Shown: piece by piece, positions 7,101 through 55,524 of the stretch | Layout: each line of letters begins with the position of its first letter | How positions within the stretch are numbered: the first letter of the stretch is position 1 | IMG/VR virus record: IMGVR_UViG_2839610755_000002 | Source: a virus | Taxonomy: Duplodnaviria; Heunggongvirae; Uroviricota; Caudoviricetes | DNA length: 64,000 nucleotides | Reading direction: 5' to 3' (one strand) | Notes under the pieces: generated by a model | The model's database searches: none | Told to the model about the DNA's origin: nothing | What the model saw: only the letters and a program-made list of their open reading frames with translations | Translations under genes and position numbers: made by a program

Positions 7101-10024
7101 ATGCGGTGCAGCAGCTGGCGGACAGTTTGCCTAAACAAGCCACCAGCGAAGACGACGACAGTGATGATTCAATCACGCAGCAATCGCAATACTCCCTGAT
7201 AGATAAGGGCGAGTTTATTCAGTTGCAGGTTCCGGAAGCGTTCGAGCAGGAAGTGAATAAGCGCCTGGCCAGGTTTGGCATTGACGAACAGACCGTAACT
7301 CACCCCGTTACGCCCAAATACGCGAAGCTGATTGCCACGCTGAAGGAGTTTTTCCCGGAAGGTAAGCAAATCATCTTCACCGATGAAAAAACGCAGCACC
7401 AGAAGCTCAAGCGCATTATCTGCAATGCTCTTAACCTTGAACCTTCAAAGGTGGGGATCCTGAATGCTCAGACGGTTGCCGAGGCAGGTAAAACCGGTCA
7501 GAAACTGAAAGCTGTTAAACCGCCGAAAGAGCTACCGGATGAACCAACAGATGCGCAGATAGCGAAATACAACGAGCAAATGGCTCGGTATGACGCCTAT
7601 ATCGCGCAGCAAAATGAAATGTCGTTGGGCGGTCTGGAAAAGATTGCAGCCGACTTCCAGGAGGGCCGGACTCCGATCATCATCTGCAACAAAAAGGCAG
7701 AGGTGGGTATCAACCTGCATCGAGGAACGACGGATATCCACCACCTGACGTTGCCGTGGACTCCAGCCAGCATCGCACAACGTAACGGTCGCGGTGCACG
7801 AGTTGGCTCCAACCGTGCAAGCGTTCGCGTTCACTACTACTGCGGCAAGGGGTCTTTCGATGAATACCGACTGAAGACGCTGAAGCGTAAAGCAGGCTGG
7901 ATCTCCGATATCCTCCGTTCAGATAAGTCAGAAATGGAGAACGCCGACGCCAATGACATGATCGAAATGCAGATGTATACCGCGAAGGATGACGGCGAAC
8001 GTCTGGCAATGATGCAGGTTCAAATGGATAAGGCGAAAGCTGCGAAACGCGCTCGCCAGAAAGAACAGGCTACTATCGACCTTCAGAACTACATCAAGGC
8101 GCAGCACGCAGCTGGTGAGGATGTGGAGGTACTTACCGCTGAATTGGAGCGAAGCAAAGCGGAACTTGAAAAGACCACCGCCGACGTCGCCAAATTCAAA
8201 CAGGCGGTAATGGCCAAAGCAGCTGATAACGCAGACTGGAAAGCCCGCTGGGGTAGCGTCCATCACACAGACCGTATGTTGTTAGCACAGTATCGCGCGT
8301 CGTTGAAAAGCGCCATTCAGCGCAAGGCTAATATCTCTCAGGCCATCTCCCGCTATGAGAAATTATTGAACCGTACTCAGAAGGCCGCGACGGATATCAA
8401 ACGCCTGCGCCCGCTGGTGGAGGATGCAATAAATAAAGGCATTCTGGATGTTGATCCTGATCTGGTTAACCATGCGAATGAGTTCCTTGTTATCGGCGAT
8501 CGCTCATGGCGTGTAGGCCAATACTATGATTGTGCCGGTGATATCGTTCGCATTAAGTCGCTGGACTTCGACAGCCAGCGCGCAGACGTGGAGATCATCT
8601 TTACCTTCAAAGGTACCAAATCGGGTAACTGGGATGTGAAGACGCTGGATAAACAGGTTGATGTAACTCCCGATGAAGATGCTGTTATGCAGAAAATCAG
8701 TGGTGGCGTCTCCATCGCCGGGATTAACGACATCATTTCCTGTGACGATTTCTACCGTTTCCAGCAGCGCGGCATGATCAAAATCACTGACTCATACGGC
8801 GTTCAGACTACAGAGTCAGGCTATAGCATTGATTTTGTTGGTACCTATACGTACCCACTGAAGCATGCGGTTTACCCGGATCGCCGTGACGGCGCGCTGA
8901 AGTCGTCAATTGCAAAATGGGTGCTTGGTATGATGTCGGAAGGGAATAACCGCCAGATCCGTTCGGCAGAAACATTCCTGGTTGAACTGTTTGGCTCCAA
9001 TTATGGCGATGTAATCGCGTCATACGGAGATACGCTATCCCCTGAAGCAATTCAGGAGAAAATAGCGGATGCGATCGCCAGAATGCCGGAAAAAACAAAC
9101 CAGGGGGCTACTCGTAACGGGGATTCTGAACTTGAGGTCACCAATGCTATTTTCGGTACCAATGAGTTCCGGGCGTCAGATTATGAGATCACCACAGCAC
9201 AGTTTGGCACCATTGGCATTTACAGCAATAAAGACGAGATCAAGCAGGCAATGGACGCAGCAAGCGCGCGCATTGCAGCAGAACGGAAAGCCAATCTGAA
9301 TCATGCAGTCGCCGCGCTGACTCAATCGTGGGTAACAGCAATCAGGGAGGCCGCCACCACAGGAAAAATCACACCGGCAATTGCGGATGTCGTAAACGAC
9401 GGCTCTAAATTTATGGATGCCTATAAAATGGATGCGATGAAGTTGCCATCAGCCTATGGTCAACTCAGCTATCGCATGACCTACAACCTGGTATCAATGT
9501 TTTCCGACCTTGCCATCCTTGGGCTGGTGGATCTTAACGAGGTTACGCCGGACTTGCTCAGCATGCGCAAGAATCATGTGGAGATATTGCAGAGAATTAA
9601 CACGGTTCTTGCCGGGCGCACCGATGAAGAGAAACAGGCCGACGCTGATCGGATAAACCTGGCCCTTGGCAACATCACGGAGGAAGAAATTGCCGCCAGA
9701 AACGAGAAACAAGAAGAGTTATCATCAATACAGGGTGATGCCACCAGCATAGCTCAGTCTCTTGGTCTGAATTATCGCGTATCCACTGCCGACCTGAAGA
9801 TGATGTACGCACCAAAATTCGCCGCTGGAGAGGTATTTGGGCTTCAGGAGGCGTCCGGCATGAAAGGCGTTCTTTTCCGTGCTAAAGACGCAATCAAGGA
9901 AAAATTCGGCGCTCGCTGGCTGCCAGCGAAGGCGAAGAACAGCGATTTCCCGGGTAACTGGTGGATTATCGAGACAAAACACAACGTGGCGGACGTTCTG
10001 GCCGTCATCCAACAATACGCATAA
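4112..10024 (+). CDS. darB: DarB C-terminal segment (helicase-like large protein)
   Basis: 1970-aa ORF overlapping the previous one by 8 nt in another frame. 287+1970 aa is about the recalled 2255-aa P1 DarB. Walker-like GFGTGLGKTT and DEGHN motifs. Confidence 0.75.
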   Translation: MDEGTLESANVLWPTFISGKWFEKDGRRFVHGTQEKGFQGRIEVRADGQIDNLALKAKLIHRFESRIDWSLLDMAEPSPTADVVDEGEMRLINGVWQKYAGGRWIEADAGKELKIDVASYGADSWEALQRNLTTTEGRLGMTFTQMANVRDKYTTSISDDMVQLVDWINSQPEKYRERLYRGAMIGRMLIEYQDMKAAGHSAEQIEQQRLSLVSRLQAEIDRFGNPGRGPIAKLSGSGARAWFAFRGAIKLDGTISDELTGKLVTHDSSASYDSTSYQDILRYLYSDLTRDPIQLDDFRLAFTGELPASDKELLNLLASTPGIAVSPYGGIVPFARATSGDINEIVAPKQEFLATLPDGPVKNNVLNQLAAIEEKRIKTPAENIRFKLNSRWFDRSVILEFLQENGYPDLRYVQSVQLEGDEMVSDTYHGGDGLFVGHRYGVVQRKDKETGEIRYEWDRKSGENATGFPAQLEKYLNGARIGGKDSATANGYREQMALLEDQFNKWLKTHDRYDELVAKYNDVFNSNIPYEHSGDPLGLKGLSGKRQPFDYQNSEVRRLSEDGRGILGFGTGLGKTTTALALEAFNYENGRSTRTAYVVPKAVLENWYYEAKEFLSEEAFSNYLFVGLDVLMDGDQIRQVPVLDENGKPVLGTDGTPVMRDALKLADEATITARMNAIPHSNYRAVVFTKEQYARIPLRDDTVDEHAQDMLYDFVAAGRVASAMDSDSHRKEAARRRVLSEYSDTGTEKAEKYPYFEDMGFDSVIADEGHNYRNSYKNGREASQLAYLPTSAVAQSARDMAIKNAYLMKKNGGRGPVLLTATPVVNTPIDAYNMLSHVLPKEYWQKMGIYGPDDFVKFFGKTRLETVQKISGEVEEKMALVGFENLDALRGIFHRWTTLKTAEDVKDTVEIPELDEHQQDAPLTEEQLAAYEELRQQAEAAAKANNGVTTSVNEDGVIEHEKARPIFSIIRDMDRVCTDMDLYYRRITYRFLPEYADAVQQLADSLPKQATSEDDDSDDSITQQSQYSLIDKGEFIQLQVPEAFEQEVNKRLARFGIDEQTVTHPVTPKYAKLIATLKEFFPEGKQIIFTDEKTQHQKLKRIICNALNLEPSKVGILNAQTVAEAGKTGQKLKAVKPPKELPDEPTDAQIAKYNEQMARYDAYIAQQNEMSLGGLEKIAADFQEGRTPIIICNKKAEVGINLHRGTTDIHHLTLPWTPASIAQRNGRGARVGSNRASVRVHYYCGKGSFDEYRLKTLKRKAGWISDILRSDKSEMENADANDMIEMQMYTAKDDGERLAMMQVQMDKAKAAKRARQKEQATIDLQNYIKAQHAAGEDVEVLTAELERSKAELEKTTADVAKFKQAVMAKAADNADWKARWGSVHHTDRMLLAQYRASLKSAIQRKANISQAISRYEKLLNRTQKAATDIKRLRPLVEDAINKGILDVDPDLVNHANEFLVIGDRSWRVGQYYDCAGDIVRIKSLDFDSQRADVEIIFTFKGTKSGNWDVKTLDKQVDVTPDEDAVMQKISGGVSIAGINDIISCDDFYRFQQRGMIKITDSYGVQTTESGYSIDFVGTYTYPLKHAVYPDRRDGALKSSIAKWVLGMMSEGNNRQIRSAETFLVELFGSNYGDVIASYGDTLSPEAIQEKIADAIARMPEKTNQGATRNGDSELEVTNAIFGTNEFRASDYEITTAQFGTIGIYSNKDEIKQAMDAASARIAAERKANLNHAVAALTQSWVTAIREAATTGKITPAIADVVNDGSKFMDAYKMDAMKLPSAYGQLSYRMTYNLVSMFSDLAILGLVDLNEVTPDLLSMRKNHVEILQRINTVLAGRTDEEKQADADRINLALGNITEEEIAARNEKQEELSSIQGDATSIAQSLGLNYRVSTADLKMMYAPKFAAGEVFGLQEASGMKGVLFRAKDAIKEKFGARWLPAKAKNSDFPGNWWIIETKHNVADVLAVIQQYA

Positions 10025-13278: not shown

Positions 13279-13295
13279 CAATTAATTAGAGCAAT
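13279..13295. promoter_or_regulatory. C1 operator-like site upstream of ref
   Basis: ATTAATTAGAGCAAT matches the reverse complement of the recalled C1 operator consensus ATTGCTCTAATAAATTT. Confidence 0.55.
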
Positions 13296-13426
13296 GATAG
13301 ATATTTTATTTATCGTGAGTCACATTTTTTCACTTCAGTATCTGTCTGCTATACTCCTTCTTGATTGATTGGATGCGGAATACAAACCCGCTCTTTTGTG
13401 CAGCCTGGCTCCTTGCCAGGCTTTTT

Positions 13427-13738
13427 TTATTTCATCATGGAAGCTGTTAATGCTTTGGACCTTGCTGAACTGATTGAAAGGACATTGTTAACCTTACCCA
13501 AGAGTTCGCCAAACTCAGACATCACTTTAGCAAAACCTCGCCGTGCTTCTTCCTCGGTAGCATTCATCACGAAATGTTCAGCACTACGCATACTTTTGAC
13601 AGGAAACGCAACGGATATTGAGTCAATATCAGGCATTCTATCGCTCAGCTTTACAGTGACAATGACGGCTGGCGACTGAATATTAGTGCTTACAGACAGC
13701 ACTACATATTTTCCGTCGATGTTGAAATCCTTTCTCAT
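13427..13738 (-). CDS. Cra-like small protein
   Basis: ORF immediately downstream of cre, preceded by GGTGG; position of P1 cra (recalled). Confidence 0.4.
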   Translation of the reverse strand: MRKDFNIDGKYVVLSVSTNIQSPAVIVTVKLSDRMPDIDSISVAFPVKSMRSAEHFVMNATEEEARRGFAKVMSEFGELLGKVNNVLSISSARSKALTASMMK

Positions 13739-13754
13739 ATGCCACCATAAATAT

Positions 13755-13771
13755 CAAATAATTAGAGCAAT
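13755..13771. promoter_or_regulatory. C1 operator-like site between cre and cra
   Basis: Core ATTAGAGCAAT present with flanking mismatches. Confidence 0.45.
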
Positions 13772-13788
13772 TTATTATACATTGACGG

Positions 13789-14820
13789 CTAATCACCATC
13801 TTCCAGCAGGCGCACCATTGCCCCCGTTTCACTATCCAGATTACGGATATAGTTCATGACAATATTTACGTTGGTCCAGCCACCAGCTTGCATGATCTCC
13901 GGTATTGAAACTCCGGCGCGGGCCATATCTCGCGCGGCTCCGACACGGGCACTGTGTCCAGACCAGGCCAGGTACCTCTGACCAGAGTCATCCTTAGCCC
14001 CGTAAATCAATCGGTGAGTTGCTTCAAAAATCCCTTCCAGGGCGCGAGTTGATAGCTGGCTGGTGGATGATGGCGAGGCAACACCATTTTTTCTGACCCG
14101 GCAAAACAAGTAGTTATTCGGATCATCAGCCACACCAGAGACAGAAATCCATCGCTCGACCAGTTTAGTTACCCCCAGGCTAAGTGCCTTCTCTACACCT
14201 GCGGTGCTAACCAGCGTTTTCGTTCTGCCAATATGGATTAACATTCTCCCACCGTCAGTACGTGAGATATCTTTAACCCTGATCCTGGCAATTTCGGCTA
14301 TACGTAACAGGGTGTTATAAGCAATCCCCAGAAATGCCAGATTACGTATATCCTGGCAGCGATCGCTATTTTCCATGAGTGAACGAACCTGGTCGAAATC
14401 AGTGCGTTCGAACGCTAGTGCCTGTTTTGCACGTTCACCGGCATCAACGTTTTCTTTTCGGATCCGCCGCATGACCAGTGAAACAGCGTTGCTGTCACTT
14501 GGTCGTGGCAGCCCGGACCGCCGATGAAGCATGTTTAGCTGGCCCAAATGTTGCTGGATAGTTTTTACTGCCAGACCGCGCGCCTGAAGATATAGAAGAT
14601 AATCGCGAACATCTTCAGGTTCTGCGGGAAACCATTTCCGGTTATTCAACTTGCACCAAGCCGCCCATGACCGGCAAACGGACAGAAGCATTTTCCAGGT
14701 ATGCTCAGAAAACGCCTGGCGATCCCTGAACATATCCATCAGGTTCTTGCGAACCTCATCACTCGTTGCCTCGACCGGCAATGCAGGCAAATTTTGGTGT
14801 ACGGTCAGTAAATTGGACAT
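13789..14820 (-). CDS. cre: Cre tyrosine recombinase
   Basis: 343 aa, MSNLLTVHQNLPALP...MVRLLEDGD; near-identical to the canonical Cre sequence from memory, with a few substitutions. Confidence 0.97.
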   Translation of the reverse strand: MSNLLTVHQNLPALPVEATSDEVRKNLMDMFRDRQAFSEHTWKMLLSVCRSWAAWCKLNNRKWFPAEPEDVRDYLLYLQARGLAVKTIQQHLGQLNMLHRRSGLPRPSDSNAVSLVMRRIRKENVDAGERAKQALAFERTDFDQVRSLMENSDRCQDIRNLAFLGIAYNTLLRIAEIARIRVKDISRTDGGRMLIHIGRTKTLVSTAGVEKALSLGVTKLVERWISVSGVADDPNNYLFCRVRKNGVASPSSTSQLSTRALEGIFEATHRLIYGAKDDSGQRYLAWSGHSARVGAARDMARAGVSIPEIMQAGGWTNVNIVMNYIRNLDSETGAMVRLLEDGD

Positions 14821-15229
14821 TTGACACTCAGATAATGGTTTTAAGTAAAGTGTACAGGATCGGCTCTGCCTTTACCTGTTTATGATTCTCGTCATAGAAA
14901 CGCCAACGACCGCGACTGCGTTCTATCTTTTCTTCACCGCGCGATAATGACAGTTGACAACTATCACGATCAAACCCTTTTGCCCGCCAGTAACCACGAT
15001 TTTTCTCAAGCTCAAGATGAGTGGACCTTTAGCAGCTGAATATCCCATTTTTCACCTCTGATTGATTGGTGGTGCTAAGTGCGCTACGCGAAATCTGGAG
15101 CACTAACACTGCCAACATTTCGCAGATTTTACGTAGCGCAACCTTGATCAAATGATCACTATTTGACCTGATAAGGTATTGAACTGTATGGATTTACAGG
15201 TAAATTAATCATGTTCAATAACCCTTAAG

Positions 15230-15263
15230 ATAACTTCGTATAATGTATGCTATACGAAGTTAT
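15230..15263. other. loxP: loxP recombination site
   Basis: Exact 34-bp ATAACTTCGTATA-ATGTATGC-TATACGAAGTTAT (13-bp inverted repeats, 8-bp spacer). Confidence 0.97.
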
Positions 15264-15305
15264 CAGATCCGAAGAGGAGTTTACGTCCAGCTGCGCACAA
15301 AAATC

Positions 15306-15322
15306 AAGAATTATTAGAGCAA
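15306..15322. promoter_or_regulatory. C1 operator-like site (Op99 region)
   Basis: GAATTATTAGAGCAAT, reverse-orientation match to the consensus. Confidence 0.55.
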
Positions 15323-15383
15323 TAAATTTAGAGAGAAAAATCCCACTCCACCAGCTAAAAACTGGATTGTTTTTCATAGTTGT

Positions 15384-15410
15384 TTGACAATTGCTCTAAT
15401 AAATTATAGT
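15384..15410 (+). promoter_or_regulatory. C1 operator (ATTGCTCTAATAAATTA) overlapping a promoter-like -35 TTGACA / -10 TATAGT
   Basis: 16/17 match to the consensus immediately after a TTGACA hexamer, upstream of coi/c1. Confidence 0.6.
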
Positions 15411-15644
15411 TTTGCCGTCGTTACGTAATACGACTTTGGATTCACTATTTAATGTGTCTTCAGCGTTGTAGAGCGGCTCAGAAGGAAATGAGCAAACAGG
15501 GAAACCTTATACAACGGCATTACAGCTATGCATTGCTCATCTTACACACAGCGCAATGTTGTTAGATTACCCCAGCATGGATCATGGGTGAAACAGTAGG
15601 TCAGAGCTTCAGGCTCTGTGTTGTCAATACAGTGAGGCATAATT

Positions 15645-15854
15645 ATGGCTTTCATTCAACCAACCATCGACGACGTTAGACATTGCTCTAACGCTTTATC
15701 TGTAGACCCTGCCGAAACCGACGCTGCCCGCGCCATTGCTGAACACTACTCAAAGATATCCAATCAGGAGTACCGCATCACCCAAGACGACCTGGATGAC
15801 CTCACTGACACAATCGAATATCTCATGGCAACTAACCAGTTAGACTCACAATAA
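15645..15854 (+). CDS. coi: Coi, C1 inactivator
   Basis: 69-aa ORF directly upstream of c1; size and position as P1 Coi (recalled). Confidence 0.75.
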   Translation: MAFIQPTIDDVRHCSNALSVDPAETDAARAIAEHYSKISNQEYRITQDDLDDLTDTIEYLMATNQLDSQ

Positions 15855-15870
15855 ATGCACTAATAAATCT
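15854..15870. promoter_or_regulatory. weak operator-like site AATGCACTAATAAATCT between coi and c1
   Basis: 14/17 match to the C1 operator consensus; carries the TGCACTAAT variant core. Confidence 0.35.
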
Positions 15871-15964: not shown

Positions 15965-16816
15965 ATGATAAATTATGTCTACGGCGAACAACTGTACCAG
16001 GAGTTCGTCAGCTTCAGGGATCTCTTTCTAAAAAAAGCTGTTGCACGCGCCCAACACGTTGATACAGCCAGCGACGGTCGTCCTGTACGCCCGGTTGTCG
16101 TTCTACCGTTCAAAGAAACTGACAGCATTCAGGCTGAAATTGATAAATGGACTTTAATGGCGCGGGAACTGGAACAGTACCCAGACCTCAATATCCCAAA
16201 GACTATTTTATATCCAGTGCCTAACATCCTTCGCGGTGTGCGTAAGGTTACAACTTATCAGACAGAAGCTGTGAACAGCGTCAACATGACCGCTGGCCGC
16301 ATTATTCATCTGATTGATAAGGACATTCGCATCCAAAAAAGCGCGGGGATCAATGAGCACAGTGCGAAATACATAGAGAACCTGGAAGCAACAAAAGAGC
16401 TAATGAAGCAGTACCCGGAGGATGAAAAATTCCGTATGCGCGTACACGGCTTTAGCGAAACAATGCTGCGCGTCCACTACATTTCCAGTAGCCCTAACTA
16501 CAATGATGGTAAATCAGTTAGTTACCATGTGCCACTGTGTGGCGTGTTTATCTGCGATGAAACTCTCCGTGATGGAATTATCATCAACGGTGAATTCGAA
16601 AAAGCAAAATTTAGCCTTTATGACTCCATAGAACCGATCATCTGCGACCGCTGGCCGCAAGCAAAAATATATCGCCTGGCAGATATTGAAAATGTAAAAA
16701 AACAAATTGCCATCACTCGCGAAGAGAAAAAGGTTAAGTCAGCCGCATCAGTTACGCGCAGCCGTAAAACCAAGAAGGGGCAGCCAGTAAACGACACCCC
16801 CGAAAGCGCGCAATAA
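15965..16816 (+). CDS. c1: C1 master repressor of lysogeny
   Basis: 283 aa, MINYVYGEQLYQEFVSF...; matches the recalled P1 C1 sequence and length. Confidence 0.9.
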   Translation: MINYVYGEQLYQEFVSFRDLFLKKAVARAQHVDTASDGRPVRPVVVLPFKETDSIQAEIDKWTLMARELEQYPDLNIPKTILYPVPNILRGVRKVTTYQTEAVNSVNMTAGRIIHLIDKDIRIQKSAGINEHSAKYIENLEATKELMKQYPEDEKFRMRVHGFSETMLRVHYISSSPNYNDGKSVSYHVPLCGVFICDETLRDGIIINGEFEKAKFSLYDSIEPIICDRWPQAKIYRLADIENVKKQIAITREEKKVKSAASVTRSRKTKKGQPVNDTPESAQ

Positions 16817-46899: not shown

Positions 46900-47898
46900 T
46901 CAATCATTACCGCGCGACGGTTTCTGCGTGATAAACGTTTCAAGCATCTTTTCCGCAATTGCCGACCAGGTGTGACACTGGACCTTTTCAGCATTTTTCA
47001 CGCGATCAACGCGAGCAATAACCTCATCCCAATCAATCCGCGACTTGATAACCATATGGTTCACCAAAGCCAGGCGATCTGGCGGAAGGCAATCTGGCGG
47101 CGTTAATATCAACGCCCCACACATTGCCGCCTCAAGAACAGTTAATCCAAGGCTTTCGGGATGCGTAACGATAAAAACGTCACTCTTACGCAATTCAGCT
47201 GCAAATTCGGTTGCTGGTACCGGCGTCCGTCTGTATGGAGTTACCGAAATATTCCCCGGATCAATGGTAACCAATCCGTCATCGGTCAACGTTCTGGCCT
47301 CATACGGAACGGGCAGACGCTGAAGGTTCATAAGGATACTTAAGGAGTGATCAAACCCACTAACATCAAATGCAGCGTGGTCTACAAAAATACGCAGAAC
47401 ATCGTCTGTCTTGGTTTCCAGATGGAACAGTTCCTGATTCGCTGCCCATCCAACATGTTTGTTAAAGCGATTATGACGCTCTAACCTGCCGGGATTATCC
47501 AGGTACCGCCAGGTATCATCGCGGACAGTAAAAGTAATATCGACTGGTGCCGAATCCAGCATAGAACCGTCATATACCTGGGCTACCCATCCAGAGAATC
47601 GGCGACACAGTTGCATGCCTATTTCCCTGGGTACCGTAGTAAAATACCTCAATCCTGGTGCCAAAATGGCCTTCGCAGAACATGCGGTCGCAGCAGTCAA
47701 CACAGCTTCAACATAATCCTCCGGGCTTTCGACGCCAGGGGAATATGGACGATGGTATTGCAATGTTACCCCTGCCTCACTAAAGGCGCAGGCCAGGTTA
47801 TAAGCCCACATTTCCGTATATGTTTTCACATCACTGATGGCTTCAAATTTTCGCCCAATGATCAGGATGTTCATCGGCTTTTCCTCATTCCATTGCAT
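46900..47898 (-). CDS. GT-B-fold glycosyltransferase-like protein
   Basis: C-terminal HPESLGLTVLEAAMCGALIL resembles the GT1/GT4 E-x7-E region; immediately downstream of ban. Confidence 0.5.
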   Translation of the reverse strand: MQWNEEKPMNILIIGRKFEAISDVKTYTEMWAYNLACAFSEAGVTLQYHRPYSPGVESPEDYVEAVLTAATACSAKAILAPGLRYFTTVPREIGMQLCRRFSGWVAQVYDGSMLDSAPVDITFTVRDDTWRYLDNPGRLERHNRFNKHVGWAANQELFHLETKTDDVLRIFVDHAAFDVSGFDHSLSILMNLQRLPVPYEARTLTDDGLVTIDPGNISVTPYRRTPVPATEFAAELRKSDVFIVTHPESLGLTVLEAAMCGALILTPPDCLPPDRLALVNHMVIKSRIDWDEVIARVDRVKNAEKVQCHTWSAIAEKMLETFITQKPSRGND

Positions 47899-49268
47899 TA
47901 ATAATCCTCTTGCCAGTCAGCACCGGCATAGTTATCAAACCGTGAGTATTGGCCGTTAAAAGCCAATCTCACCGTGCCAATTGGGCCATTTCGTTGCTTT
48001 CCGATAATTACCTCGGCAATGCCCTTCATTTCGCTATCCGGGTGATAAACTTCGTCGCGATACAGAAACATGATCAGGTCTGCGTCCTGCTCAATTGCTC
48101 CTGATTCACGTAAATCTGAATTTACCGGTCGTTTGTCCGCACGCTGTTCAAGCGATCGATTAAGTTGTGACAATGCCACCACCGGTACTTGTAATTCCTT
48201 CGCCAAAGCCTTCAGTGAGCGAGAAATCTCGGCAATTTCCAGCGTTCGGTTATCTTGCAGCTCGGGGACGCGCATAAGTTGCAGGTAGTCGATCATAATC
48301 ATGCTCAAACCACCATTTTCTTTATAAACACGACGAGCGCGGGAACGAAGCTCTGTAGGTGTCAGGGCGCTTGAGTCATCAATAAAAATATTCTGCTTGT
48401 CCAACAGAATCCCCATTGCGCCAGAAACCCGCGCCCAATCCTCGTCGTTAAGTTGCCCTGTTCGAATACGAGTCTGATCAACGCGTGCAAGAGAAGCCAG
48501 TGAGCGCATCATCAGTTGGTGGCTCGGCATCTCAAGGCTAAAAACCAATACGGGCTTATCGTTACGGACTGCGGCATTTTCGACGAGATTCATCGCAAAC
48601 GTAGTCTTCCCCATCGATGGGCGGGCGGCGACAATAATGAGATCGGACGCCTGAAGTCCTGCCGTCTTCTTATTGAGATCGGTAAATCCGGTATCAAGCC
48701 CCGTTACACCATCATGCGGTCGCTGAAACAACTCTTCTATGCGAGATACCGTTGCATCGAGAATGCTGGCGATATCTTTTGGACCACTACCGCTCTTTTG
48801 TCGTTTTTCAGCTATTTCAAAAACGCGGCGCTCGGCCATATCCAGCAATTCATTGCTGCCCCTGCCATCCTGCGCATATCCAGCTTCAGCTATTTCATTT
48901 GCGACGGAAATCATTTCACGAACAACCGCGCGTTCACGAACGATATCCGCATAAGCACAAATATTTGCCGCGCTGGGCGTGTTCTTTGACATCTCCGCAA
49001 GGTACGCAAAACCACCGGCGCGTTCTAATTTACCGTTCTGTTCAAGTGCTTCAGCAAGTGTTATCAAATCAATCGGTTTGCCATGACTTAATAACCTCTC
49101 CATCTCACTGAAAATTTCACGATGAGCACTGGTATAAAAATCATCAGCAACTATACGATCTGCAACTTCATCCCAGCGGCAGTTATCAAGCATTAAGCCA
49201 CCAAGTACAGCTTGTTCTGCACTAAGGGAATTTGGCATGGATTCAAGAGGGGATGCAGACATTAGCAC
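47898..49268 (-). CDS. ban: Ban, DnaB-family replicative helicase
   Basis: 456 aa with DnaB-like N-terminus (SAEQAVLGGLMLD) and Walker A (ARPSMGKTTFAMN). Confidence 0.85.
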   Translation of the reverse strand: MLMSASPLESMPNSLSAEQAVLGGLMLDNCRWDEVADRIVADDFYTSAHREIFSEMERLLSHGKPIDLITLAEALEQNGKLERAGGFAYLAEMSKNTPSAANICAYADIVRERAVVREMISVANEIAEAGYAQDGRGSNELLDMAERRVFEIAEKRQKSGSGPKDIASILDATVSRIEELFQRPHDGVTGLDTGFTDLNKKTAGLQASDLIIVAARPSMGKTTFAMNLVENAAVRNDKPVLVFSLEMPSHQLMMRSLASLARVDQTRIRTGQLNDEDWARVSGAMGILLDKQNIFIDDSSALTPTELRSRARRVYKENGGLSMIMIDYLQLMRVPELQDNRTLEIAEISRSLKALAKELQVPVVALSQLNRSLEQRADKRPVNSDLRESGAIEQDADLIMFLYRDEVYHPDSEMKGIAEVIIGKQRNGPIGTVRLAFNGQYSRFDNYAGADWQEDY

Positions 49269-49542
49269 TCCACCCAGGCGTGCTGAATGTCAGATATAAT
49301 CGGCATACTCAAATCACTCCTAACGATATGAGTCATCACCAGAAAATCAGGATTAATGCGCCGGACTCTTCCCGGCTGTCACACCGAATCGCCAGGATGG
49401 TGAATCCGCAGTCCGACGCTATGAACGGGGCTTGCACATTCCGGCTACCTGGTTTGTTGCCTGAGCTAGGGGAAAGGTTACCCCTTTAACGTCACCAGAC
49501 CGCTAACGACGCATGTGCCAGACGCCGTGTTACAACCAAATA

Positions 49543-49618
49543 TGGTGGCCCCTACCGGACTTGAACCGGTGACCGTGCGATTATGAGTCGCCAGCTCTAA
49601 CCACTGAGCTAAAGGGCC
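49543..49618 (-). tRNA. tRNA with CAU anticodon (Ile2/Met-type; ileX-like acceptor stem)
   Basis: Hand-folded cloverleaf: acceptor GGCCCTT/AGGGGCC, anticodon loop CTCATAA, T-loop TTCAAGT, encoded CCA; coordinates approximate. Confidence 0.7.
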
Positions 49619-49645
49619 GGATTACTGCCAATTTTGCTTACGCTT

Positions 49646-50473
49646 TTATTTCACCGGAACAAACGGAACAGCGGTATTACTGGTCATATACTGCGGTAAT
49701 GTACCGTTCCATTTGTTGATCGCTTCCAAGTCCATAACACCGGGGTTCTGGCGCAGAGCTTCACCACGTAAACGAATGGCATCAGCTTCGGCCTGGGCTT
49801 TTGTGCGAATAGCATCAGCCTGTCCGGCAGCTTCCGCGCGCAGCATGTTGGCCTCTGCTTCACGTTGTTTGACCTCTTGCTCGCGTTGCAGGGTTTTTTG
49901 GTTTGCCGTGACTTTGGCGTTAATACTGTCAATAACTGTTGGCGGGTATTCTGGCTTACCTACATAAGAGAGGCTCATCACCTGAATGCCGATTGGCGTC
50001 ATTTCTTCCTGAATGTCTTTAAGGGCTGCATCAAGCAATTCAGATTTGCCACCGTCGATAAATTTGTCGGTGGTCATTTTGCTGGCTAATCGGTTCAGAG
50101 CATCTGCAACCTTCTGGCGTAGATCGGTATCAGTAATATCATCTACACCTTTGCGATAGGTCTGAAATACCGTTGTGACTTTTGCTGGATCAACCTTGTA
50201 GGCTACGCCGATGTGGTAACCAATGGTTGTTCCGTCGCTCATCTGGAAGCTGAACGGCTCATCGTATGTCTTCATTTGCTTAAAGGTCGGGAAGATATAA
50301 ACTTCAGTATTCAAGCCTGTCCAGTAGCGACCAACGCCAACTACTTCACCGATACCTTTATCATCCCCCAGCTTATTTACTTTGATCCCTACGTTACCTG
50401 GCTCTACCCGATCGCATCCGGTCAGACATAAAGAACCCAAAATAATCGCTGCACTAATCAACGTTTTTTTCAT
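49646..50473 (-). CDS. SPFH/band-7 family lipoprotein (Plp-like)
   Basis: Signal peptide with lipobox LTGC, then a prohibitin-like domain and Ala/Glu-rich coiled coil. Confidence 0.55.
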   Translation of the reverse strand: MKKTLISAAIILGSLCLTGCDRVEPGNVGIKVNKLGDDKGIGEVVGVGRYWTGLNTEVYIFPTFKQMKTYDEPFSFQMSDGTTIGYHIGVAYKVDPAKVTTVFQTYRKGVDDITDTDLRQKVADALNRLASKMTTDKFIDGGKSELLDAALKDIQEEMTPIGIQVMSLSYVGKPEYPPTVIDSINAKVTANQKTLQREQEVKQREAEANMLRAEAAGQADAIRTKAQAEADAIRLRGEALRQNPGVMDLEAINKWNGTLPQYMTSNTAVPFVPVK

Positions 50474-50690
50474 TAATTAATTTCCTGGTTTTTTCACGAA
50501 AAAAGACTACTGCGAAAGCCGGGTAAATGAGCGCGAGAAGGACTCCCAACAATACAAGTATTGTGCTGTTAGATGAGATCATATTTGGCAAAAGCCAAAC
50601 ATACAGAACCAGTGACACAATCAAACAGAGGACGGCATAAATATATAACCGCACCCATAGCGTTCGACATTTGTTCGGATTGTTCTGCAT
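50454..50690 (-). CDS. small membrane protein (Upl-like)
   Basis: 78 aa with two hydrophobic helices, overlapping the plp-like start. Confidence 0.4.
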   Translation of the reverse strand: MQNNPNKCRTLWVRLYIYAVLCLIVSLVLYVWLLPNMISSNSTILVLLGVLLALIYPAFAVVFFREKTRKLINEKNVD

Positions 50691-51563
50691 CCTCTCACTC
50701 CATTATTTAACGAATAAAAAAGCTGCGGTGCCGGGTTCCTCCCGGTGTCCTTTGGCTGGTTATCCACCGTGGACGTGGAAACAAGGAGAAATAATGGACA
50801 GATATAACCATTTCCCCGCGTGCGCTTAGCCGCATTCACCGCAACGGAAAGAGCATTCTTGGTGGACCTGTAGATTGGGATATGAACCCGTTACAGGAGA
50901 ATGCTCTTACCTGTTACGTGCTCCGTTTCGTGGAGCTAACGGCGGGTGATCAGACCGCACCAGACTGGACTTATTTCAGCGTTATGCTCATGCCAGAGAA
51001 TCAAACTGTGATGGTCGGTGCTGAACTCCGACACAGGGTTGTAGCAAGCCCCGCAAAGCGCGCACTACTGTAGTTGCGGCACATCAGCCTGTGCATTCAC
51101 CACAATGTTGAGAACACTGGTTGTCACGCGGCAACGCAACATTTATTCGTAGATTGGGATATGACCCCGTTACGCCAGTGTTCTCAACGTTGTAGTTGTT
51201 ATGCGTATTCTCTTACTAACCGCACACCAATACATTTCCCATCACGTTCATTTGTCTCGAAACGTGAATACTTAAGTTCGCCGTTAATAATCGCTGTTAC
51301 AACCCGTATCCCGTTAAACGCCCACATATTTCGCTCCATTTACACACATTACCAGTCGCCGGTTACGGTTCCGGCCAGGCCTCTTCCTCAACGGGGTGTT
51401 CTCCATACGGACTACCGTTTATTGGTCGTTCCTGCGGTTTATGTTGTGAAGCCAGATGCTTATCTTCTGGTTGCTTCTAAGATCTGCACTTCATCACAAC
51501 GGTAAGAGCACTCGATGCATTTAAGCCAGGCCCCATAAGGGAGAATGCTCTTACCTGTTATGT

Positions 51564-51639
51564 TGGTGCCGATTAACGGGATCGAACCGCTGACCATTCG
51601 CTTACAAAGCGACTGCTCTACCAACTGAGCTAAATCGGC
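51564..51639 (-). tRNA. tRNA-Thr (UGU)
   Basis: Hand-folded: acceptor GCCGATT/AATCGGC, anticodon loop TTTGTAA, T-loop TTCGATC, encoded CCA; coordinates approximate. Confidence 0.8.
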
Positions 51640-51643
51640 AATG

Positions 51644-51730
51644 TGGTGGGGAGTGATGGAGTCGAACCACCCGAGTCGCAATGACAGTAGATTTACAGTC
51701 TACCCCGCTACCCCTACGGACTAACTCCCC
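51644..51730 (-). tRNA. putative class II tRNA, Tyr-like (GUA anticodon, long variable arm)
   Basis: 87 nt: acceptor GGGGAGT/ACTCCCC, anticodon arm GTAGA-CTGTAAA-TCTAC, 15-nt variable arm, T-arm GGTGG-TTCGACT-CCATC, CCA. D-arm pairing is irregular. Confidence 0.45.
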
Positions 51731-51735
51731 TAAAG

Positions 51736-51810
51736 TGGCGATGGTGGGTGGATTCGAACTACCGACCAGTTGGTTAACAGCCAACTGCTCTACCGCTGAG
51801 CTACACCATC
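51736..51810 (-). tRNA. tRNA-Asn (GUU)
   Basis: Hand-folded: acceptor GATGGTG/CACCATC, anticodon arm GTTGG-CTGTTAA-CCAAC, T-loop TTCGAAT, CCA; coordinates approximate. Confidence 0.75.
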
Positions 51811-52273
51811 ACTTGCCGGGTACGTCTCCGGCGAGGGCTTCCACCTCCGTATGCTTTTCGGCGCACCGCGCCCTGGCTGCAATTCGGTAACAGGGGATGC
51901 ATAACCCTGGCTTCCAGCGTGATTAGCGCCTTCAGCATGACGGGATATACCCGTAAATTCGTGGAACTGTACCCAAAGTGCTGTTAAGCACCGCTGTTAC
52001 GCTGAAAAGAAAACGCAACAGGAAAGGACGCTGACCAACAGATGGCCCCTTCTCGTTCATCTGGTTAATCACACCAGCGCCCTTACCTGTTGTGCCTCCC
52101 CGTTCCCTAATACACAGACGGGGACACTCTGCGGTCGATTTTTTGACGGGGGACGACTCATACCCCATGGCATCTGGCTTCTTAGGCCGCTACCATCATC
52201 AGATCATCGTTTGCATTTACTTTAATGGTCAGTTTCTAAACCGCCGCAAAGTCGCTAACCATGACGAAAACCC

Positions 52274-52301
52274 TGAAAAAAACGCCCACCCGAAGATGGG
52301 C
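52274..52301 (-). terminator. intrinsic terminator downstream of dmt (GCCCATC-TTCG-GGTGGGC then T7)
   Basis: 7-bp stem with a UUCG tetraloop and a run of 7 T on the minus strand, about 190 nt after the dmt stop. Confidence 0.6.
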
Positions 52302-52475
52302 AAACTGGACGCTCGTAACGCACTTCGGCGTTGCCACTTAGGCGCATGGTCAACCTGGCAACTCGGTGGTTTGTCTGGGAGGACTAGGCCCAGCCATGCT
52401 TACCGCCGCGCCTGTCGCGGCTAACAGCTAAATCGCTCTATAAATCACGATTCATTGAGGTGATATTACACTAAT

Positions 52476-52492
52476 AAATTTATTAGAGCAAT
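52476..52492. promoter_or_regulatory. C1 operator, perfect consensus match, overlapping the dmt stop codon
   Basis: AAATTTATTAGAGCAAT is the exact reverse complement of ATTGCTCTAATAAATTT; preceded by ACACTAATAAATTT giving a near-palindromic double site. Confidence 0.7.
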
Positions 52493-55400
52493 ATACCCAA
52501 AACGTCATGAGCTACACCTCGAGTGTCCCCCTTACAAGACACAGAACGTCTGGCAAAAAGAGGTTCCACTCTGAAGCCACTGTCATGATAAAGCTCTCTG
52601 ATGTTTGGCGCGCCACTGTTAGTAATGAGAACCTTTGCACCTCGACGATGAGCATCCGTCAACAGAGACACCAGGCGTTTTTGCTCTTCAAACTTAAAGT
52701 CATGACCGGAATAGTTCGTGAATCCCTCTGTATTTGGAAGCGGTTCATACGGCGGATCGCAAAAGATGACATCTCCTTCTCCGGCAGCTTCAATCACCGC
52801 TGCAAAATCACCGCATACAAACTCAGACCGCCCTTCCGCACCGAGGAAGGCTTCCATCTCCTGTAATGGGAAATACGGAGTTTTATACTTCCCATAACCG
52901 ACATTGAACTCACCGGCCTGGTTGTAACGCGTCAATCCGTTAAAACAATGTCGGTTCAGGAACAAAAACGCCGCTGCGCGATGTAAATCATCATAGACTT
53001 GTTTGTTAAACGCATTCCGTACTGCCAGGTATCCTTCCTGTGTGTTGTAGTCCTGGAAGAAACGATGTGCCAGAGTGATAAGTGAATGCGCCTCGCGTTG
53101 CAGAGTCTTGTAAAAGTTAATCAGGTCAGCATTCACATCATTTAGCAGATTTTCCTGGTATCCGGCATTCATGAAGACAGCTCCGCCACCAACGAAAGGT
53201 TCAATCAGGCGCTTCCCTTCTGGCAAATAGCGAAAGATTTGTTCCAGAACACCAAATTTTCCACCAGCCCATTTGAATATGGACCGTTCGAATTCTGCCG
53301 CTGGTTTAACTTTTCGCTCTTTTGTTTCACTTCCTTCTTTCTGCCGACATACGGCCTTAGTAATCCGATCGCCAATCCAGCGCATTACTGGTATTGCCAT
53401 ACTATTGCCGATCGCTTTGTAACGCGGTCCGTCAGCTGCAAGCATTGCGGCCTCTTCTTCGCTTAAATCTGGATAGTGATTGTGCAGATATGCCAGTTCA
53501 TCTGAATTAACTTTTTTACGCTTTTCCGTAGGGATCAACGTATGCCAATCAGGAAAACCTTGCAGCCTTTCACATTCGACAGGGGTAAGACGGCGCATTC
53601 TACCGTCGCCGAGCAATACAATTGGTGCTTCATGGTTACATGTCAAAGTTGGTGCCGAATTATCGGTTTTTATCTCAGCCCCTCCTTGCCCATGTGCCAT
53701 GGCAATTATGTTTGTATCATCGCAAGTTCTGATAGCGATGTTTGAAGTATATCTGGTAGTTTCCTTCCCCTCGCCTCTGCTCGGCGCAATATTCCGGCGC
53801 ACGCCTTCGAACTCAAAAAGTACCGTTGCGGGATCGAGATCTGTTCGAGCACTTGCGACAACAAACACGCGTCGGCGTCGTTGTGCCACTCCGAAGTATT
53901 GGGCATCAAGGATTCTCCAGGCCACTTTTCGCTGCGGTCCATAAATACAACCACACTGCGGCCACTTTGGAACATGGCAACCGGTTTTGCCATCCCACCG
54001 CCAGAACGCGTTGCTTTTTCCTGATTCAGGTCGATCACCTGGTTCAAATGGCACATCTTCTCCAGCCAATCCGGCAAGGAAACATCCGAAGGCGTTATCT
54101 GCCGATGACAAGACTCCTGGGACATTTTCCCAGACGATAACGGCTGGTTTGAGAAATGACTCAGCCCGTTTGTCGTCAATTGCATTTGCAAGCTCCACAT
54201 ACTTTAAAGTTAGCGCGCCACGCTCATCATCAAGCCCACCACGTAATCCCGCGATACTGAATGCCTGACAGTTATGGACCACCGCACCATTGAGGATATA
54301 GGAATGATCACCTTCGACTTCTATGTTGTATACAGTATCTAGGCCTACCGATTTAAACTCTTTGACTGTTCGTAAAAGCATTCCATGAGCCAATCTTGAT
54401 TTACGTGACAATTTCTGCGGGCAGATTGTTACCTGATAATAATTCCGTTGATTTACCACGCGATCCTCGATCACTTTTTTGGGCTCAACTTCAATAAAGC
54501 TGACCGAAGAAACATAACCACAAGTCTGTGACAACCCCGCAACGCCCCAAGCAAGCGCAGAACTAACACTATTAATTCTAAATCCCGCTTTACCACTTGG
54601 TGTCCCATCAGTATCAAGATAGCCTTGTAAAAACACATGACGCAATGGATGCGACATCACCCATGCAGGGATACGCTTAGCATGGCTTAACTCGCCAAAA
54701 TGTTCATTAAGCCAATTGGCATAACACGTATCATTCAAGGTTACTTTGATGCTCCCTCGGATTTCGCTTGCCACGGAAAATATGTTTTCTGGTATGCGGC
54801 AATGAAACTTTCTCAATTTCTGGCAATTTATGCCAAAAACAACCGCCTTCTTAGATTTACCTCTCCATCTCCTAATATATCCATCGCCAACATAAGCGCC
54901 CGCAAGATACATAGCCTGTTCTTCAGACAAGAACCGAGAACAAATATCTGGAAATGCAATATTGAAATTAGTTAGAGCGCACCATTGATATCCCGGCATA
55001 TCACATGCTGCTCGCCATTCCGGTTCAGACAACAACTCTCTCTTAAAATATGTGCCATTTTTCCGGGTGTTTTGGGCTTTCCACCGAACAGCCAGGAAGG
55101 GATGGTCATTGGTTGTTCTTATACCTAAAGGCTGCCCAACGGCATTAAGTAACCCCGTATTAGCTATTTTTGAACCAACTCTTTTTACTTGTTGTAACCG
55201 CCCGAGATGACTGACTACGTAATCACCAGGGCAAACATTTTCTATTGGTTTATAGCCATTTTTACAAAGAACCATATGCCCCGCGGTAAAACATGGTGTT
55301 CCCCCGACGAGCACGTCAGGGGATTCGATTTCCCCAGCCAAGACTTTTTTGGCAAGTTTTTTCATGTCGCCAAGGTTGGCAACATGGGGCCAGCGGAGCG

Positions 55401-55524
55401 CAAGAACGGCCGATGGAAAAGGCTCGATTTCAGCAAACCACGCCGGACGCATACCCAACGGTTCCCAGGCAATACTCGCGGCTTCAATTCCACTGCAAAC
55501 AGATCCATAGCACAGCTCTTTCAC
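52483..55524 (-). CDS. dmt: Dmt bifunctional DNA methyltransferase (N-terminal C5-cytosine MTase interrupted by an intein; C-terminal Dam-like N6-adenine MTase)
   Basis: C5 motifs I ([11 protein letters not shown]), IV (GGTP|CQAFSIAG, split by the intein) and VI (VIVWENVPG); Dam-like KWAGGK and DPPY in the C-terminal half. Confidence 0.8.
54271..55293 (-). other. intein (341 aa) with LAGLIDADG homing-endonuclease domain inside dmt
   Basis: Starts with Cys (CFTAGHMVL), has TTNDHPF (block B-like), [12 protein letters not shown] and [11 protein letters not shown], ends ...NGAVVHN followed by Cys; excision restores [12 protein letters not shown]. Confidence 0.7.

Follow-up and report, generated by a model that had tools for sequence, protein, structure and literature searches.

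A P1-type bivalent C1 operator on the predicted ban operon promoter, and a conserved, putatively pseudoknotted leader RNA ahead of the first downstream terminator

Positions 52465-52492 of the 64,000-nucleotide stretch of phage DNA that we analysed (the window) very probably constitute the bivalent C1 operator Op72ab (Oban) of a P1-type phage, located on the sigma-70 promoter P1ban. The same high confidence applies, jointly with the operator assignment, to the mechanism proposed below, in which a C1-controlled P1ban would give rise to a structured leader RNA, with partial read-through of a terminator to tRNA genes and ban. Judged by sequence comparison, the operator, the promoter and the terminator are the Op72ab, P1ban and 'dicF-like' features of P1 and are as such already known. 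Between promoter and terminator the DNA would encode a pseudoknotted RNA of ~95 nt that may be previously undescribed, as far as the searched literature and Rfam go.

The segment from 51500 to 53000 is 100% identical to Escherichia phage vB_EcoM-Ro157c2YLVW (Punavirus, P1-like) and ~98.7% identical to phage P1 across the shared part. The gene for the DNA methyltransferase, dmt, was located in the ORF list at 52483..55524 on the minus strand and carries this name in the annotation of NC_050153 and NC_005856. Its product is 1013 aa long in the window, 754 aa in P1 and 1095 aa in the Ro157c2YLVW record, and the length of the methyltransferase gene is thus variable between close relatives; because gene lengths differ from the Ro157c2YLVW record, the window must come from a close relative and not from that exact record. 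The gene of the repressor that would act in trans on the operator, c1, was identified by a tblastn search with P1 C1 at 15965..16813 on the plus strand (283 aa, 98.9% identity). When up to three mismatches to the 17-bp asymmetric C1 consensus ATTGCTCTAATAAATTT are allowed, the window contains 17 matches, as compared to 0.35 expected from shuffles (~50-fold enrichment), which characterizes it as a C1-regulated genome. Clusters of operator-like sites are found at 13279-15870 and at 46821-46853; several such sites lie just 5' of c1 (compare Op99a-e in P1), and the two sites at 46821-46853, which are inverted and overlap, look like a further bivalent operator.

The consensus is matched without a single mismatch at 52476-52492 on the minus strand, and this is the sole perfect match within the window, as the earlier note on this DNA had claimed. 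This operator half, Op72a (Oban a), is homologous to the P1 protein_bind feature Obana and covers both the -35 element of P1ban and the dmt stop codon (52483-52485), the latter overlap having also been recognized previously. The other half, Op72b (Oban b), reads ATTACACTAATAAATTT at 52465-52481 on the plus strand, has two mismatches, covers most of the -10 element and is homologous to P1 Obanb. It is inverted relative to Op72a and overlaps it by 6 bp, and the joint 28-bp near-palindrome (52465-52492) bears out the proposal of a fused second half-site. The P1ban annotation was transferred from P1 through a locally identical alignment to 52463..52491 on the minus strand, with a -35 element TTGCTC (52491-52486), a spacer of 17 bp and a -10 element TAATAT (52468-52463), so that transcription is predicted to start near 52456 on the minus strand. 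A generic promoter consensus scan did not call P1ban because its -35 element matches at only 3/6 positions. With Op72a positioned on the -35 and Op72b on the -10 element, the layout points firmly to repression by occlusion of P1ban by C1.

The annotation of related phages leads to the same assignment. In the P1 record (NC_005856) the homologous 28 bp are described as 'divalent C1-controlled operator Obanab; corresponds to former Op72ab; controls expression of ban', overlapping with 'sigma 70 promoter P1ban' and the dmt stop; a predicted P2ban is annotated as well, and a 'dicF-like region' and then trnA are found further on from the operator. The same operator is annotated in the P7 record, where it 'controls expression of trnRNA, ...'. 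The window and P1 are identical in the operator and in both promoter hexamers (99% identity over 311 nt), have the same overlap of hexamers and dmt stop, the same flanking genes and a cognate C1 of 98.9% identity, and share the order dmt stop, operator, tRNAs, ban. We found no material difference from P1 in the operator; there is one A/G change just after the -10 element, the terminator discussed below ends in U7 in the window and in U6 in P1, and downstream the window has an extra tRNA-Tyr and a different gene block replacing plp/upl/tciABC. A comparison with P1 Op72 positions, which had been suggested before, therefore identifies the site as Op72, and the idea that C1 regulates a promoter from which the tRNA-ban operon is transcribed agrees with the P1 Obanab/P1ban and P7 annotations at homologous positions. 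Since the site is the annotated P1 Op72ab, the interpretation given in the earlier note is the established one; the note had missed the 'dicF-like region' label of P1 and the conserved pseudoknotted RNA predicted in the interval. Footprinting and operator/bac mutations in late-1980s work of Velleman 1987, Lurz 1987 and Heinzel 1989, and of Schuster, reportedly established that Op72 controls ban. Bof acts as a co-repressor at Op72.

The UUCG-tetraloop terminator that had been noticed downstream on the same strand was located as well. Its minus-strand hairpin GCCCAUC-UUCG-GGUGGGC (52301-52284) is followed by a G (52283) and U7 (52282-52276), that is, a G+C-rich hairpin with a stem of 7-8 bp and a UUCG loop precedes the U-tract directly. 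The terminator begins ~175 nt and finishes ~200 nt past the operator, or ~155-180 nt past the predicted start. A 10.5-kb scan ranked it first among terminator-like sites and gave no second strong one on the minus strand, nor is there any other in the stretch from P1ban to ban; it is also the first terminator after the dmt stop. The hairpin is present in the minimum-free-energy fold of the leader. Loose terminator patterns overall are not enriched in comparison to shuffles (17 found, 12 expected); the case for the terminator therefore depends on this individual hairpin being of high quality and being conserved in P1, P7 and D6. Together with ~26 nt of single strand ending in UUU, the hairpin and the G+U7 form the 3' module of the leader (52276..52327, minus strand), which on sequence grounds is a predicted intrinsic terminator laid out like the 3' end of an Hfq-type sRNA. 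In D6 (positions 1440-1560 of locus L166, minus strand) the same UUCG terminator and tRNA block as in P1 are found without the C1 operator and without the pseudoknot domain. The terminator and the downstream genes are therefore not dependent on this promoter in every relative, and the terminator is separable from the fold. D6 also has a second hairpin with a T-rich tail ~30 nt upstream of the UUCG terminator, which looks like an arrangement of tandem terminators.

The 'dicF-like region' of P1 maps to ~52266-52368 of the window. The Rfam DicF model (RF00039) gave no match at 52230-52500 even at E<=10, while the true DicF of the K-12 Qin prophage scores 76.7 bits with it (gathering score 48). 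When the 3' module of P1 was paired with the ftsZ start region, 479 of 500 shuffles paired as well in this rather crude duplex-energy test. Homology to the dicF locus is nevertheless found, in the preceding sequence: a blastn search of complete E. coli genomes with the segment 52326-52420 gave matches of 77-80% identity in 4421 of 5426 genomes (~81%), at 8908 chromosomal and 589 plasmid places. In K-12 and O157 the homologous segment is part of the untranslated region between ydfC and dicB, and ~25 nt separate its end from dicF, which lies downstream, so that the homology is to the region ahead of dicF and not to DicF. We therefore rejected a literal 'dicF-like' identity, the Qin homology being upstream of dicF and the complementarity to ftsZ not special. 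In the DicF literature searched, the region ahead of dicF is referred to only as 'a long untranslated region' (PMC5069750).

Comparative analysis of this segment revealed a conserved RNA fold. The predicted leader RNA of ~95 nt (52328..52421, minus strand), defined by homology to the region upstream of dicF, by covariation and by a covariance model, consists of a P2 hairpin (52421-52405), a P3 hairpin with a pyrimidine-rich loop (52393-52375) and a P4 stem (52364-52356 paired with 52336-52328) that closes a 19-nt loop. The linker between P2 and P3 (52404-52402 and 52399-52394) pairs with the P4 loop (52349-52341) in a 9-bp long-range helix, the putative pseudoknot. The fifth helix of the family fold, an outer closing stem, is present in most lambdoid copies and missing from P1-type and a few other copies. 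Among 70 distinct copies 95.2% of the cells are paired, as compared to 34-53% when partners are slid, and eight pairs show compensatory changes. For 27 diverse copies, in an alignment that was fitted to the nested helices, the corresponding values are 92.9% and 32-51%; compensatory changes at 14 of 36 pairs in that alignment were reached by none of 500 shuffles. The pseudoknot helix, although it lies outside the covariance model, is paired in every sequence (100%), an invariance partly imposed by the degenerate search pattern, and has a single variable pair (U-A, C-G or U-G). Loops and junctions are highly conserved. The G-U pairs, of which there are many, fit only the transcribed strand, to which the structure is therefore assigned; a protein-coding reading of the leader by the antisense ORF 52092-52424 was set aside in favour of the RNA fold. 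The window itself matches the covariance model at 52304-52440 with 97 bits. Folding of the single leader sequence was uninformative (z = -0.71), and the fold becomes visible only by comparative analysis. No family of Rfam 15 matches the leader, in searches of 49000-53500 at E<=1 and of 52230-52500 at E<=10 that returned only tRNAs and chance-level matches; we found no description of the pseudoknotted fold in the literature searched, in which older P1 and dicF work is incompletely covered.

In order to describe the distribution of the element, 120 IMG/VR loci were gathered with a degenerate pattern and further copies were taken from species genomes. The covariance model gave 146 matches in ~1.5 Mb, one copy per locus, and detected no second, divergent copy in the window or in 160 other loci. 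Members were found in E. coli, E. albertii, E. ruysiae, Shigella, Citrobacter, Trabulsiella, Erwinia, Izhakiella and Serratia symbiotica; the element measures ~95-120 nt across ~150 other loci, the Qin copy of K-12 being located at positions 2491-2610 of its locus (L003). In lambdoid phages and prophages the early-left operon carries it: the repressor gene and small ORFs (ydfABC or none) precede the element, and dicF or a variant of it, dicB/kil and the recombination genes come after. At least eight different 3' modules are joined to the one conserved 5' domain, and an intrinsic terminator follows P4 after 46-93 nt in all eight downstream classes, usually preceded by UUU; the divergent copies from other genera also have an intrinsic terminator downstream. 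The next 2 kb are mostly same-strand coding in 77 of 79 distinct contexts, the exceptions being P1-type loci, where tRNAs come first, which makes the terminator internal to an operon. The context survey thus reveals a conserved fold followed by an intra-operon terminator in every copy examined.

Several features of individual copies were also recorded. In five of them, from Erwinia (L161), Izhakiella (L164), Trabulsiella (L158), Serratia (L144) and Salmonella phage F1055 (L008), a longer terminator hairpin is found 60-110 nt past the element, with a Shine-Dalgarno-like AGGAG plus an ATG or GTG in its loop; these loops may represent a small ORF or a translation-coupled terminator. Many lambdoid copies carry GCTCTYTYCG 5' of the closing stem (columns 1-9 of alignments A3 and A4), which loosely resembles boxA (GCTCTTTA) and is missing in P1-type copies.

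The first genes past the terminator, on the same strand, are those of tRNA-Asn (51736-51810), tRNA-Tyr (51644-51730) and tRNA-Thr (51564-51639), called by both ARAGORN and the Rfam tRNA model. The tRNA-Tyr(GTA) gene is located between the other two, while the annotated blocks of P1, P7 and RCS47 contain only Asn and Thr here. The 465 nt from the terminator to tRNA-Asn (51811-52275) are unannotated in P1, are ~91% conserved in D6 and contain a 78-aa ORF on the minus strand (51932-52168); a 110-aa antisense ORF, the one at 52092-52424, crosses the leader. Further downstream, at 50724-50843 (minus strand), the Rfam model of the gammaproteobacterial sRNA STnc100 scored 38 bits (E = 7e-6), which is below its gathering score of 47. 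In P1 the place of 49646-50690 (minus strand), between the tRNAs and ban, is taken by plp, upl and tciABC; the Ro157c2YLVW record has a lipoprotein (275 aa in the window) and a small membrane protein there. ARAGORN calls the tRNA with anticodon CAT that precedes ban (49543-49618, minus strand) Met(CAT). P1 has trnI in this place, annotated in its record as tRNA-Ile2 (CAT, ileX-like), and the tRNA of the window is probably likewise specific for isoleucine, after lysidine modification. At the distal end of the operon lies ban, which encodes a DnaB-like replicative helicase (47898..49268, minus strand; ORF list, annotation and P1 synteny).

We propose that in the prophage C1 bound to Op72ab would block RNA polymerase at P1ban and keep the promoter off. 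Upon inactivation of C1, transcription would start near 52456 on the minus strand and first produce a leader of ~180 nt, predicted to consist of the ~95-nt pseudoknotted domain, a short single strand and the cUUCGg hairpin with U7. Part of the polymerases would stop at this terminator and release a short RNA; the remaining ones would pass into the tRNA-Asn, tRNA-Tyr and tRNA-Thr genes, further genes and finally ban. The same terminator may also end or attenuate transcripts that arrive from the upstream dmt operon. Of this scheme, the sequence analysis shows the identity to the annotated P1 elements, the c1 gene, the terminator hairpin and the conserved RNA fold; the start site, the partial read-through and any role of the fold are what we infer. 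Read-through has to be assumed because the terminator is located between P1ban and all of its genes. It is made plausible by a promoter scan in which no consensus-like promoter was found from the terminator to the tRNAs, which for that reason probably depend on read-through, and by P1 genetics, which tie ban to Op72.

The main product of P1ban may possibly be a short RNA instead. By analogy, the primary transcript of ~180 nt would be trimmed to a ~50-nt Hfq-binding sRNA, an analogue of DicF with a different seed, and the pseudoknot would serve as a scaffold for processing or stability. The two leaders are indeed similar: the dicF locus of Qin-type lambdoid prophages (ydfC, untranslated region, dicF, dicB) has the homologous ~95-nt domain with the same helices, and in both loci a short, variable single strand and a terminator hairpin with a U-tail follow this untranslated domain inside an operon. 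In P1, as in most of the variants, the hairpin is immediately preceded by a U-rich stretch, and the combination of one 5' domain with its many 3' modules is what would be expected if the 3' part carries variable seeds. DicF itself is produced by termination plus RNase E cutting, and the dicF locus makes both terminated and read-through RNAs (PMC9438474, PMC5069750). However, the P1 domain differs from that of the dicF locus in following directly after a C1-controlled promoter and in having no outer closing stem, and its 3' module is not DicF, given the missing Rfam match and the unremarkable ftsZ pairing described above. D6, moreover, retains the hairpin without the 5' domain. P1 genetics also make ban a target of P1ban, and a short RNA would therefore not be the whole story. 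A short regulated transcript ending at the terminator, which the earlier note had offered as a second option, is compatible with a C1-controlled operon promoter and may be made as well; the interval of ~180 nt from P1ban to the terminator is homologous in architecture to the dicF locus.

Rather unlikely is a role of the leader RNA as a cis-acting antiterminator. It would act like HK022 put, a factor-independent antiterminator RNA, modifying RNA polymerase during elongation, by itself or together with a host factor, and allow transcripts from P1ban and lambdoid early-left transcripts to pass the terminator. In this analogy a processive antiterminator unrelated in sequence to put would allow passage of a DicF-type terminator in the P1 ban operon and in N-less lambdoid prophages. 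The operon-internal terminator that follows every copy at short distance would fit such a role, as would the position of the element, which comes directly after the promoter in P1 and where N/nutL or putL would be in lambdoid genomes. None of eight flanking early-left-operon proteins matches an antiterminator family (only PHROGs of unknown function and one weak protease match were obtained), and the strong conservation of loops and junctions suggests a specific binding partner. The likeness to putL/putR, which are likewise structured nascent RNAs after an early promoter and ahead of intra-operon terminators, is one of position only. Searches of the HK022 immunity region with nhmmer and the covariance model gave no match to the leader RNA, and homology to put was rejected in view of this lack of sequence or model similarity. 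The fold is also different: put consists of two stem-loops with a triplex (PMC9378689), in contrast to three hairpins and a pseudoknot in the leader. HK022 has put copies in both early operons, whereas the leader RNA occurs once per locus and no counterpart in the right operon was found in the ~1.5 Mb searched, a range whose flanks in some cases ended short of the right operon. Finally, D6 manages without the element, and transcripts from dmt would carry it too, so that the two operons would not be separated.

It is more doubtful still that the terminator is a plain end of the dmt operon, at which most P1ban transcripts would die while the tRNAs and ban are expressed from other downstream promoters. 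The place of the hairpin as the first terminator past the dmt stop would fit this, and so would D6, with its hairpin and second upstream hairpin but no operator, and the unannotated 465 nt between hairpin and tRNA-Asn. The lack of a consensus-like promoter between the terminator and the tRNAs argues against it, however, as do the P1 and P7 annotations, which place ban and the tRNAs under control of the operator. In P1, moreover, ban is expressed by operator-constitutive mutants, which such a plain end would not account for. A transcription-attenuating riboswitch, which would share the combination of a conserved pseudoknotted multi-helix domain and an intrinsic terminator, is less likely than either an sRNA scaffold or a cis antiterminator because inspection by eye revealed no conserved alternative pairing between the domain and the variable terminators, the context suggests no ligand and no Rfam family matches.

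Under the preferred reading, a C1-controlled P1ban with partial read-through to the tRNAs and ban, the operator confirms that the classical C1/Op72 control of the ban operon is kept in this P1-like phage. The leader is a useful by-product of the analysis, namely a structured RNA directly ahead of a terminator that is conserved from P1 to Qin-type prophages across Enterobacterales. If this RNA governs read-through or the maturation of an sRNA, this would account for the expression of ban and dicB beyond internal terminators. It would, if true, constitute a new RNA family at the dicF locus, which has been studied since the 1980s; the leader RNA is present in E. coli K-12, and its role is directly testable there.
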